A stretch of 64,000 bases of DNA from Candidatus Eiseniibacteriota bacterium (lineage in GTDB: Bacteria; Eisenbacteria; RBG-16-71-46). Below, one piece after another: positions 37,575 to 41,879 of this stretch. The first letter of the stretch is position 1; every line of letters starts with the position of its first letter. Both the position numbers and the translations under genes were made by a program. A model generated the notes under the pieces. The model saw only the letters and a list, made by a program, of their open reading frames with translations. It was not told the origin of the DNA and did no database searches. Location: positions 298,791-362,790 of the forward strand of contig OY970342.1 in assembly GCA_963717505.1 (NCBI GenBank). Direction: 5' to 3'.

Positions 37575-40500
37575 CTAGGACCGCGCGAGCTTCCTCAACA
37601 CCGATTGTAGGATTCCGCCGTTCCGGAAGTACTCGACCTCGACCGGCGAATCCAGTCGCGCGACGGTCGGGAAGCTGAGCGTCGAGCCGTCCTCGCGCCG
37701 CGCTCCGACCATCACGGTCATCCCCGGCGTGAGCCCGGCCTCGATTCCGGTGACGTCGAATACTTCGCGCCCGGTGAGCCCCAGGCTGTCGGCGTTGCTG
37801 CCGGCCTGGAACTGGAGCGGCAGCACGCCCATGCCGACCAGGTTCGATCGGTGAATGCGCTCGTAGCTCTCGGCGATCACCACGCGGACACCGAGCAGCA
37901 GCGTGCCCTTGGCTGCCCAATCGCGCGATGAGCCCGCCCCGTATTCCTTGCCGGCAATCACGATCAGGGGCACGCCCTCGGCGCGGTAGCGCTCGGCGGC
38001 GTCGAAGATCGCCACGCGCTCGCCGCCCGGCAGATGCAGCGTCAGGTTGCCCTCGCTGCCCGGGATCAGGAGGTTCTTGAGCCGGATGTTGGCGAACGTG
38101 CCGCGCACCATGACCAGGTCGTTGCCGCGCCGCGAGCCGTAGGAGTTGAAGTCGCGCCTGGCGACGCCGCGCGACTTGAGCCACTGCCCCGCCGGGCTCT
38201 CTTCGGCGATGTCGCCGGCCGGCGAGATGTGGTCGGTGGTCACCGAGTCGCCGACGCGCACCAGGCAACGAGCGCCCTTCACGTCGCGCACCGGCGCGGG
38301 ATCGAAGCGTGAGGCCCGGCGAAGAACGGCGGCTCGTGGATGTAGGTCGAGGCTTCGTCCCAGGCGATAGCGGTCGCCGCCGGCCACCGGGATCGCGTTC
38401 CACTTGGGATTGCCGTCGAACACGTTGGCGTACTGCTCGGCGAACTGCGACGGCTTGAGCGATCGCGCGATCGTGTCGCGGATCTCGTCGTGGCCGGGCC
38501 ATACATCGCGCAGGAAGACCGGCTTGCCGTCGCGGCCGGTGCCGAGCGGGTCGCGCTCGAGGTCGATGTCGACGGTGCCGGCCAGCGCGTAGGCGACGAC
38601 CAGCGGCGGCGACGCGAGGTAGTTGGCGCGCGTGTGCGGGTTGATGCGGCCCTCGAAGTTGCGGTTGCCGGAGAGCACGGCGGCGGCGACGAGGTTGCCG
38701 TCATTGATGGCGTTTGCGACCGGTTCGGGCAGCGGACCGCAGTTGCCGATGCAGTTGTGCACGCAGATCGTGCCGGCGACGAACGCGTGGACGTCGTTCA
38801 CCGCGAGATCGAAGACTTCCCGCGATGCCCGCCGGCCGCCGATCGATGACACGCAAGCGAAAACGTCGGCAGGCTCAGCGCTTCCTTGTCGACGCAGTAG
38901 CGCTTCGACGTAGTTCGTCTCGGTGCTTGCCTTGAGCGGCGCGAACCAATCCCGCACGCCGAGTCTCGCGGAACAACTCGACCGGTGATGGGAATCCGCA
39001 CGACTCCCGATGGAGGGGCCGGAACGAACCGTCCGCGGCGCGGCAAACGAGTCGAAGCGATCGTACCCTTCGAGCAGCGAGTAGTGCGGGAACACCGGTG
39101 GTTCACGCTCCGCCAGCTCGGTAGCCGTCTGTCTGACGGGCCTGAGAGAAGCGACAGTTCCGGCTCGCGCTTGTGCAGCGCTCGATGCGCTCCGCCATCC
39201 AGAGTCGTTGATCGCGAATCGTGGCGACCGTGCGCCAGTAGACCGCCGCCGCGCTGGCGCTTGAGGCTCTTGTCCACGCAGTAGCGGAACCCGACCCGCT
39301 CGACGAACGACAGGCCATCGGGAAGCGACAGGCGCACCTCGACTGCGAGGCGCGCCGTCGACGCGCCTCGGGTACGACGAGGCCGAGCGTCGGATCGGGT
39401 ATTGGTAGATCGTGCGCGCCTTCGGTCTTCGACGCCGCACCGGCCGAGCAGCCGAAGCAGGCTGTCGCATCACGCTCGCGAAGCGCAGCCGCGTGTGGCT
39501 CGATCGTCGTGCGCGAGAATGCCGGCGGACTGCAGGACGCGTCCTCCTCGCGCGGGCCCTGTCGCTCGAGTGCAGGGGCATGGCCATCCGCGCCGAACAG
39601 CCCGCCGAGGAACTCGCGGACGATCGCCACGCGGACAGCGCTCGTCGAGAACGAACGCCGGCAACCCAGGTTCCTGGTGGATCCGCCGGCCGACGCGTCA
39701 CGCCGGCGAGCGACAGGATCGCGGCCGTCAGCTCCGCCGGCAGCACGATGCGTCCACTTGCGCTCGTCGTAGCGACGTCGCCGCCGGGCGCTTGCCGGTG
39801 ATCAGCTCGACATCGTCGAGCACGGCTTCGCGGTCCATCGCCTGACCGACGTTCATCCGGCCCTTGGCCATGAACGCTGATCGAGCCATCGCTCAAGCAG
39901 GTGGCCGAGCAGGCGGGCGAATGCCAAGGCGCGCAGGCGCTGTTCGCGCGTCATCGAGCGTGAACCGCAGTTGCCCGACCTCGCAGCACGTACCCGACCT
40001 CGTCGCTGCCGGGCTCGTCGAGCGGGGCCTCGAGGCCGACGACCACGCGATCCCGCCCGATCTCCAGCGCGTCGGCGCGCACCCAGCGCCCGTCCGCGCA
40101 CAGGATCTCGTGGTCCGGCGTGCACACCAGGCTCGCGTCCATCCTGGAAGATCAGCGAGACGCACTCGCGTACGCCTTGGATCATTCGCTCGGACTGGAT
40201 CGCGTTCGCCAGTCTGCCGCTCGTCGTTCGGCCCGAACACTGCTGCACCGCCTTCGAGCGGCAGGTCCTCGATGCGACGCGCGGTACCGTTGGCCATGCA
40301 GCACCGGCGTGCCGGCGGCGATGCACGTCGTACATCCGTAGCCCACGACGTCGAATCCCAGCGCCTCGAGCGGCGCCATGAGTCCGGCGTCGCGCAGGTA
40401 CTCGGTCACCACCTTGGAGCCGGGCGCCAGGCTCGTCTTCACGTGCTGGCGGCACCGTCAGCCCGCGCTCGACGGCCTTCTTGGCGAGCAGCCCCGCGCC

Positions 40501-41879
40501 GACCATCACCGACGGGTTCGACGTGTTGGTGCACGAGGTGATCGCCGCGATCACCACCGCGCCGTGGCCGAGCGTTCGCGCGTCGCCGTTGAGCTGCACG
40601 GACTCGACCGCGCGCCGGTGTCGGCCTCGGCCAGCCCGTAGCCGCGCTCCTTGACCGGCGCGACCAGCGCCCGGCGGAACGACGTCTTCACGTCGCGCAG
40701 CGGCACGCGATCCTGCGGGCGCTTGGGTCCGGCGAGGCTCGGCTCGACGTCGCCGAGATCGAGCGCGAGCGCGTCGGTGAACGCCGGCTCGGGCGCGTCG
40801 TCGGTGCGGAACAGGCCCTGCTCCTTGCAGTACGCCTCGAGTCGCCGCGCGTCGTCGGCGCGGTTGGTGCGCACCATGTAGCGCAGCGTCTCGGCGTCGA
40901 CCGGGAAGAAGCCGATGGTGGCGCCGTACTCGGGCGCCATGTTGCCGATGGTGGCGCGGTCGGCGAGCGACATCGGCGACAGGCCCGGGCCGCAGAACTC
41001 GACGAACTTGTCGACCACGCCCTTCTTGCGCAGCATCTGGGTGACCGTCAGCACCAGATCGGTCGCGGTGACGCCTTCGCGCAGCTGGCCGGTCAGCCGG
41101 AAGCCGACGACCTCGGGCATGAGCATGTAGAGCGGCTGACCGAGCATCACCGCCTCGGCCTCGATGCCGCCGACGCCCCAGCCGACCACGCCCAGGCCGT
41201 TGATCATCGTGGTGTGCGAGTCGGTGCCGACCAGCGTGTCGGGGAAGGCGACGGTCGCGCCGCCGCCTGCGGCGCCGTCATCACGCCGCGCGCCAGGTAC
41301 TCGAGGTTCACCTGGTGGACGATGCCGGTGGCCGGCGGCACGACGCGGAAGTTGTCGAACGCCTTCTGTCCCCAGCGCAGGAACTCGTAGCGCTCGCGAT
41401 TGCGCTCGAACTCGATCTCGGCGTTGCGCTCGAGCGCCAGGCACGTTGCCGAACACGTCGACCTGGACCGAGTGGTCGATCACCAGATCGACCGGCACGA
41501 GCGGGTTGATGCGCGCGGGATCACCGCCCACGCGGCTGACCGCGTCGCGCATCGCGGCCAGGTCGACGACGCACGGCACGCCGGTGAAGTCCTGCAGGAT
41601 GACGCGCGCGGGCTTGAACGGGATTTCGCGACTGACGGCCTCGGCTGCTGACTTGCCGCCTCCCGCGATGCGCAGCACGTCGGCCTCGGTCACCTGAAAG
41701 CCGTCGCAATTGCGCAGCGCCGCCTCGAGCAGAATCCGGATCGAGTAGGGCATGCGCTCCAACTCGACGTTCGTCTGCCGAGCGAAGTGCGGAAGCGAGT
41801 AGAGGGTCGCGGGGCCGGCGCCGGGGAGGTCGAAGGGAATGCGGGCGCCAAATGGGTCGGACTTGCGCGAGGCGTTCAT
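37575..41879 (-). pseudogene. acnA: Aconitate hydratase A (acnA) interrupted by an intein and carrying multiple frame disruptions/internal stop
   Basis: N-extein (from ATG 41879, MNASRKSDPFGARIPFDL…VILQDFTGVPCVVDLAAMRDAV…[24 protein letters not shown]…) and C-extein (…SGNRNFEGRI…DHISPAG…EYGAGSSRDWAAKG…ERIHRSNLVGMG…) are clear AcnA. Conserved stretches appear in alternate frames: [25 protein letters not shown] in +1 near 41275-41443, [28 protein letters not shown] near 40450-40600, AWDEASTYIHEPPFFAG near 38300-38370. There is a stop at 40182-40184 inside the intein. Confidence 0.75.
38754..40325 (-). mobile_element. Intein (Hint domain with LAGLIDADG homing-endonuclease remnant) inserted in acnA between GYGCTT and CIGN
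   Basis: N-terminal splice block CIAAGTPVL directly after extein …GYGCTT. Block B-like …VCTPDHEIL…. LAGLIDADG-like FLGGLFGADGH in another frame (ORF 39103..39630). C-terminal block VFDLAVNDVHAFVAGTICVHN is followed by +1 Cys of CIGNCGPLPEP. Length 1572 nt = 524 codons, in frame with both exteins but internally disrupted. Confidence 0.65.

Follow-up and report, generated by a model that had tools for sequence, protein, structure and literature searches.

We confirmed that the aconitate hydratase A gene (acnA) in a 64,000-nt stretch of contig OY970342.1 (assembly GCA_963717505.1), referred to here as the window, carries a class-1 intein that bears a putative LAGLIDADG-type endonuclease domain. 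Coordinates are window positions unless another locus is named, and every part of this acnA is encoded on the minus strand. The precursor gene (41879..37575, with an ATG at 41879 and a TAG stop codon at 37577-37575) consists of an N-extein, an intein, and a C-extein. The N-extein (41879..40326) comprises 516 codons once frame-corrected, contains Pfam family PF00330, and ends in GYGCTT (40343-40326). The C-extein (38753..37575, stop codon included) starts with the Cys+1 (38753-38751) of CIGNCGPL. The intein (40325..38754) extends from Cys1 (40325-40323) to a terminal His-Asn (38759-38754). An insert between GYGCTT and CIGN had been proposed from the sequence alone, and peptide mapping shows that the coordinates given for it are exact. 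Its length of 1572 nt also stands, but the proposed 524 codons become 515 codons and 27 extra nucleotides after frame mapping.

As deposited, the ORFs (open reading frames) of this gene encode only fragments of AcnA. In a Pfam scan of the three-frame translation of 42000..37500, the Aconitase domain (PF00330) was found in the ORF at 40551-41906, and the end of PF00330 together with Aconitase_C (PF00694) in the ORF at 37575-39896. Between 41441 and 38301 the frame is shifted by 32 indels, and no continuous frame extends from extein through intein to extein. When spliced and frame-corrected, the product scores 1351.8 bits against the AcnA model TIGR01341 (cut-off 945) over profile positions 5-875 of 876.

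The insert was examined for the features of a class-1 intein: a Cys or Ser as the first residue, a block B of the form TxxH, a C-terminal (His)-Asn followed by Cys, Ser or Thr at +1, similarity to HINT domains, and clean removal. The block-B peptide TPDHEIL (Thr-x-x-His) lies at 40121-40101, the second LAGLIDADG motif FLGGLFGADGH at 39612-39580, and the C-terminus (TICVHN followed by Cys+1) is represented by CVHN|C at 38762-38751. These were located by exact peptide mapping, and all three occur where they had first been noticed. A first LAGLIDADG motif, LLGHL|LSDGSIS (LLGHLLSDGSIS), occupies 39912-39876 and is split by a +1 insertion at approximately 39897.

A profile built from ten members of the AcnA intein family matched PI-MtuI, the Mtu RecA intein, in a search of the PDB (E = 3.7e-11, over the N-terminal 95 and the C-terminal 26 residues). 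The DnaB, DnaE, and DnaX inteins were also matched by this profile. A search of the insert with Hint models had been suggested as a check, and in addition to the PI-MtuI match PF14890 was present in all ten family members tested (best E = 1.3e-10). The match to LAGLIDADG_3 (PF14528) is weak, occurring in six of the ten (best E = 4.3e-5). Two scores count against the assignment, as the corrected intein of the window itself falls below the cut-offs of both models, reaching 30.1 bits on PF14890 (gathering cut-off 35.8) and 21.1 bits on LAGLIDADG_3 (cut-off 22.5). A hand-stitched version of the same intein scores 37.7 bits on PF14890.

An AlphaFold (AF2) model was built from the intein of P0001, which is 69% identical to that of the window. 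The mean predicted local distance difference test score (pLDDT) of the model is 65.7, with values of 80–94 in the HINT part and low confidence at residues 241-359 and 426-481. In Foldseek searches, RecA mini-intein structures superpose on the model at 1.5 Å with 37% identity. The best full-length matches are TliVMA, PhoVMA, PI-PfuI, PI-TkoII, and PI-SceI, all of which are LAGLIDADG homing-endonuclease inteins (E values from 3e-10 to 1e-6, although TM-scores are only 0.24–0.35). The reading of the insert as an intein that combines a HINT splicing domain with a LAGLIDADG-type endonuclease domain is supported.

The intein is widespread in metagenomic data. A search with the hand-stitched intein identified 284 homologous proteins, nearly all of them within aconitase-family proteins from metagenome-assembled genomes (MAGs) of many phyla. 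Scanning one genome per GTDB species, we found at least 244 loci that encode an intein relative, in Acidobacteriota, Chloroflexota, Eisenbacteria, Gammaproteobacteria, Planctomycetota, Verrucomicrobiota, and Nitrososphaerales. We retrieved 80 of the 244 loci for comparison, and 58 intact copies were used to assess residue conservation. The intein is in acnA at the GYGCTT|CIGN site in all 80 loci, whose hosts include Pyrinomonadaceae, Blastocatellia, Ktedonobacteria and other Chloroflexota, Eisenbacteria, Steroidobacteraceae, Gemmatales, Udaeobacter, Omnitrophota, and Nitrososphaerales. In 77 of them both exteins and the intein are read in one uninterrupted frame, which answers the suggestion that related genomes be searched for the same intein and for uninterrupted versions. 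In two Candidatus Eisenbacteria loci, L001 (4330-8574) and L005 (3327-7583), the whole precursor is one ORF of 1415–1420 codons that is 71–75% identical to the window.

Cys1, the Thr and His of block B, both LAGLIDADG Asp residues, the terminal Asn, and the +1 Cys are invariant in all 58 intact homologues, and the penultimate His is kept in 55 of them. The AcnA intein is probably active.

We found no paper on an aconitase intein in full-text searches of the literature or in the body of the main prokaryotic intein survey, its supplementary tables apart. The earlier impression that no aconitase intein had been reported is therefore consistent with the literature, but the element itself is abundant in MAG data (284 proteins; at least 244 genomes). 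The element is of a known kind, but to our knowledge neither AcnA as its host nor this insertion site has been described before; the intein is common in soil MAGs.

Identity among the 58 intact copies averages 68% for the intein and 62.5% for the exteins. The intein remains at a plateau of approximately 66% even where the exteins are just 50–60% identical, whereas among closely related hosts intein sequences diverge more rapidly than extein sequences. We read this pattern as a possible signature of horizontal spread combined with purifying selection. When 1.84 billion representatives were searched with a profile, 547 proteins matched at E ≤ 1e-30, one of which (P0246) is an AcnA precursor of 1422 amino acids. 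The nearest relatives outside aconitase are inteins of archaeal-type family-B DNA polymerases (P0247, P0248, and P0251) and of an RNA polymerase subunit B (P0249), which align over all 517 profile positions with E values from 1e-158 to 1e-134. These relatives may point to an origin in archaea or to exchange with Nitrososphaerales living in soil.

The closest extein relatives of the window copy are mostly intein-less AcnA proteins of 901–903 amino acids from Candidatus Eisenbacteria MAGs (75–79% identity), and the intein is therefore sporadic within this lineage. The window intein is approximately 70% identical to copies from Eisenbacteria, Acidobacteriota, and Chloroflexota alike. It could be argued that the window contains an assembly chimera, in which an intein segment of another population or species was joined into an intein-less acnA. 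The scarcity of the intein among the nearest extein homologues, the lack of any special affinity of the intein to Eisenbacteria, and the concentration of errors on and around the insert are all in line with this idea. However, the insert is exactly at the canonical site of the family with an exact extein junction, and several Eisenbacteria MAGs (L001, L005, L046, and L083) have the intein at this position in their own acnA, so an intein-positive allele is to be expected in the lineage. A chimera alone would also not produce frameshifts 1.1 kb into the N-extein. We consider this explanation very improbable.

Within the C-x-x-C ligand motif of aconitase, the insertion point separates the second Cys from the Thr that precedes it. 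The joined exteins align without gaps to residues 422-590 of human IRP1 (2B3X), and the conserved junction is restored. Three Cys residues of AcnA align to IRP1 chain positions 436, 502, and 505, corresponding to C437, C503, and C506, the known [4Fe-4S] ligands. In the 3SN2 chain, Ser occupies two of the three ligand positions, consistent with this assignment. The first ligand codon (in ITSC, equivalent to IRP1 Cys437) lies at 40533-40531, and the second (in GYGC, equivalent to Cys503) at 40334-40332, three residues ahead of the intein. The third (equivalent to Cys506) lies at 38753-38751, and is a Cys in all 58 homologues. From the gapless alignment it follows that the intein is situated between the second and third ligands, and that the third ligand is also the +1 nucleophile. 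The use of an Fe-S ligand as the nucleophile, which the sequence-only reading had pointed out, is thus upheld by the IRP1 comparison.

The following sequence of events is what established intein chemistry would predict for an intact copy. A precursor of 1415–1422 amino acids would be translated first, after which Cys1 would undergo an N-S acyl shift. The +1 Cys, the third cluster ligand, would then attack in a trans-thioesterification. The terminal Asn would cyclize and the exteins would then be joined, and since this joining restores the ligand motif, the cluster site would be formed only after splicing. The endonuclease domain would be expected to cleave intein-less acnA alleles, allowing spread by homing, for which the sporadic distribution of the intein and the plateau in its identity give indirect support; the predicted target is the intein-less acnA junction sequence, GGCTACGGATGTACGACG|TGCATCGGCAAC. 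A more far-reaching proposal is that the AcnA inteins are an undescribed family that is actively homing across phyla and domains, and that, in many soil bacteria, they place the maturation of aconitase under post-translational control by redox state or iron instead of being purely selfish. In this proposal splicing and cluster insertion would depend on each other, as the +1 nucleophile is itself a ligand and Cys1 is three residues past another ligand. We regard this as a tentative idea that is rather unlikely to hold in full.

The frame breaks of the window copy were mapped with a frameshift-aware dynamic-programming alignment of the intact L001 protein to the window DNA. A six-frame codon-usage Viterbi model served for the exteins and the rest of the window, but it over-called or mis-called switches within the intein and was superseded by the L001 alignment. 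Of the 32 indels that shift the frame, six fall in the exteins and the other 26 in the intein, where their density is approximately six times greater. Overall 28 are +1 nt; in the intein, 25 events add one nucleotide each and a single event adds two, for a total of 27 nt. The extein events form three exactly compensated excursions. The first (41441-41263) results from +1 nt at approximately 41441 and +2 nt at approximately 41262, and contains the ERNAEIEF block. The second (40591-40447), with +2 nt at approximately 40591 and +1 nt at approximately 40446, includes the codon for the first Fe-S ligand, and the third (38366-38302), with +1 nt at approximately 38366 and +2 nt at approximately 38301, contains AWDEASTYIHEPPFF. 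These excursions had been recognized from the sequence alone and are real, but the extent of the damage had been underestimated, as the 26 events within the intein come on top of them. An internal stop that had been noted at 40182 does exist (40184-40182); however, by that point the true coding path has switched out of the frame in which the stop is read.

The corrected translation contains no stops in 1422 codons. Among 187 columns with a conservation of at least 95%, it deviates at two, compared with three of 187 for the intact L001. By our reading of the event contexts, none of the 28 single inserted bases is equal to the preceding base and six are equal to the following base. An origin of the extra bases in homopolymer errors was rejected on these grounds. 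We also considered 'SNP (single-nucleotide polymorphism) doubling', in which a strain variant is kept beside the reference base. This would fit the intact flanking codons found at every event, but the alignment places events at codon borders by construction, and the observation was dropped as evidence. P0237, a protein of 442 amino acids in the public record of the 4,162,540-bp source contig, is the exact translation of 41879..40551. At least the two N-extein excursions are therefore already in the deposited record, and for the N-extein at least, later introduction of the frameshifts into the window is ruled out. In the rest of the 64 kb, the codon-usage model shows no comparable frame switching and coding segments end at stops; Pfam spot checks agree.

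The net frame is restored past each extein excursion and over the intein, as would be expected of programmed recoding or of compensated frameshifts that yield a working protein. The constant return to one frame had been remarked upon earlier and is indeed seen, but it is only weakly non-random, with a probability by chance that we estimate at approximately 1 in 24. The excursions mistranslate the most conserved blocks of AcnA, including GIVHQVNLE and the first ligand Cys of ITSC, the 26 intein shifts share no common slippery motif, and 77 of the 80 homologues need no shift. Programmed frameshifting is effectively refuted by these observations, and we give functional frame changes of any kind almost no credence.

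The sequence-only reading had left the choice between a decaying pseudogene and a locally error-prone assembly segment. Judging from the assembled sequence, we consider it likely that the frame breaks are consensus artefacts and not the result of pseudogene decay. Errors in the consensus of a long-read metagenome, confined to a 3.1-kb stretch, would explain the 32 indels. A conserved gene that contains a mobile element might recruit reads from other intein-bearing or intein-less populations, and these could corrupt the consensus. The source is a single contig of 4.16 Mb, which suggests a long-read assembly. Frame switches occur in only three of the 80 retrieved loci, all of them in 'MFD' MAGs (three of 16, versus none of 64 others; Fisher p ~0.007, calculated by hand). 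The MFD MAGs derive from Nanopore-only data, with Flye as the assembler and a single round of Medaka polishing (PMC12313526). Two further contigs of long-read style, L002 and L003, likewise contain a broken acnA. Each of the six events in L002 is a +1 insertion, the kind that predominates in the window, and the genes beside the broken acnA of L003 look intact. Frameshifts recur in L002, L003, L010, L042, and L079 at reference residues ~196-202, 419-426, 1153-1158, and 1174-1180, positions at which the most conserved blocks of AcnA begin or end. Seven of 15 extein events in the other long-read copies are within six residues of a window event, versus approximately 1.3 expected by a hand estimate.

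Several points speak against an artefact. This explanation is drawn from the assembled sequence, and the long-read origin of the source contig is itself only a likelihood. Nanopore errors are typically biased toward deletions and homopolymers, unlike the +1 insertions outside homopolymers found here. The 32 events in 3.1 kb also compare with just one to nine in the other long-read copies. In addition, random error does not predict that all three extein excursions should be exactly compensated, an outcome to which we assign a chance of approximately 1 in 8.

The main competing explanation is that the indels are real, and that the intein-bearing acnA is a recently inactivated pseudogene with approximately 32 small indels. 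The deposited record has the same frames, and the damage is limited to one gene while approximately 57 kb of neighboring sequence looks intact. The pattern of lesions, however, is not that of decay. Neutral decay predicts several-fold more substitutions than indels, and at ordinary ratios we estimate that 32 indels should be accompanied by dozens to hundreds of substitutions; the lack of stops and the two deviations in 187 conserved columns do not fit this expectation. Mutation in bacteria is biased toward deletions, the opposite of the 28 in 32 events that are +1 insertions outside homopolymers. The approximately six-fold greater density of indels in the intein is also difficult to reconcile with decay, in which selection would have lapsed simultaneously for intein and exteins. 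Finally, other long-read assemblies, made independently, have frameshifts at these positions too, and the 64 remaining assemblies have none.

The window contains a second aconitase-superfamily gene (19853-21877, minus strand), which encodes 674 amino acids with a LeuD-like swivel domain (52-208) preceding the large-subunit domain (235-660). Such a paralogue might reduce the need for AcnA and so favor a pseudogene. However, it falls below every NCBIfam cut-off and cannot be assumed to replace AcnA. A second aconitase had been suggested as something to look for; within the window, a superfamily member was found, but not one that can be assigned to a specific family. Taken on the character of the lesions, which are indel-only and insertion-biased without stops or loss of conserved residues, an acnA decaying into a pseudogene is unlikely, and the alternative of an error-prone assembly segment fits much better.

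The intact loci reveal a separate problem of annotation. In L001 (called gene 6001-8577) and L005 (called gene 5001-7586) just the C-terminal 858–861 residues of the intact ORF are annotated, leaving approximately 1.7 kb of coding sequence without annotation in each, and the L001 gene call begins at a Met internal to the intein. There is no protein of approximately 1420 amino acids among the 284 homologues, whereas there are many matches of 740–906 amino acids described as 'aconitase family' or 'hypothetical', probably because of such C-terminal-only gene calls. That acnA might be fragmented in all of these genomes was ruled out by the intact ORFs of L001 and L005, in which only the annotation is truncated, and by the 1422-amino-acid P0246.

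Inteins are mostly known in proteins of replication and repair and in ATPases. The AcnA intein shares Cys1, the TxxH of block B, the terminal HN, and Cys+1 with PI-MtuI and with class-1 HINT inteins such as those of DnaB and DnaE. The hosts of those inteins are DNA-metabolism ATPases, whereas AcnA is a metabolic Fe-S enzyme whose +1 Cys is a metal-cluster ligand. A predicted architecture of HINT domain, DNA-recognition region, and double-motif LAGLIDADG domain is shared with archaeal polymerase inteins of the PI-TkoII/PI-PfuI type; the AcnA intein differs from these in its host gene and site, and in being found mainly in soil bacteria and in some Nitrososphaerales. Compared with intein-less AcnA (TIGR01341) and IRP1 (2B3X), the corrected spliced product of the window is full-length with all three ligand Cys residues, but the gene has a 515-residue intein in its C-x-x-C motif and an ORF that is broken 32 times as deposited.

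The intein of SufB may offer a further parallel, with an Fe-S-related host and catalytic Cys residues, and it would provide a precedent for redox-controlled splicing. The mycobacterial SufB intein has been described as a redox-sensitive splicing switch, according to a citation in PMC4760082. SufB builds clusters while AcnA binds one, and of the two inteins only that of AcnA appears, from the ligand alignment, to have a cluster ligand as its +1 nucleophile.

These data extend the host range of inteins to an Fe-S enzyme of central metabolism, at a cluster-ligand Cys and in hundreds of soil lineages. The AcnA intein is a natural system in which to ask whether splicing tracks redox or iron status. 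Systematic mis-annotation also makes the intein-bearing aconitase look truncated or 'hypothetical' in many MAGs. The window copy further suggests caution with long-read MAGs, in which consensus errors can concentrate locally at a conserved gene with a mobile element. Such errors mimic pseudogenization and may mislead metabolic reconstruction, for example by suggesting a 'broken TCA (tricarboxylic acid) cycle'.

The genes around acnA include those for large secreted proteins (17032-19974, 35386-37533, and 41852-43696) that are Kelch/galactose-oxidase-like, arylsulfotransferase-like, and of the peptidase M23 type. The Kelch-like and M23 proteins have Por_Secre_tail and/or FlgD_ig C-terminal sorting domains. 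In L001, SURF1 and a Kelch/Por_Secre_tail gene are also close to acnA. The gene neighborhood of acnA in the window is consistent with an Eisenbacteria-like organism.

Two other genes in the window have unusual reading frames. The DUF885 ORF at 46466-48490 (minus strand) extends approximately 250 nt beyond both its Pfam match and the coding signal, and runs into the first part of the Mem_trans gene that lies downstream (45714-46613/46691). It is possible that its stop was lost or that there is a single frameshift near the 3' end. A gene for a MerB-like protein (alkylmercury lyase; 58971-60026, minus strand) contains one in-frame TGA (59207-59205), with positions 1-80 of the Pfam MerB model upstream of the TGA and positions 87-125 downstream in the same frame. 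The TGA falls at what we take to be the position of the catalytic Cys159 (MerB ...SFC159C160HVHFF...), and a hairpin of 8–9 bp begins 11 nt downstream. The codon could be one for selenocysteine as opposed to a nonsense mutation.

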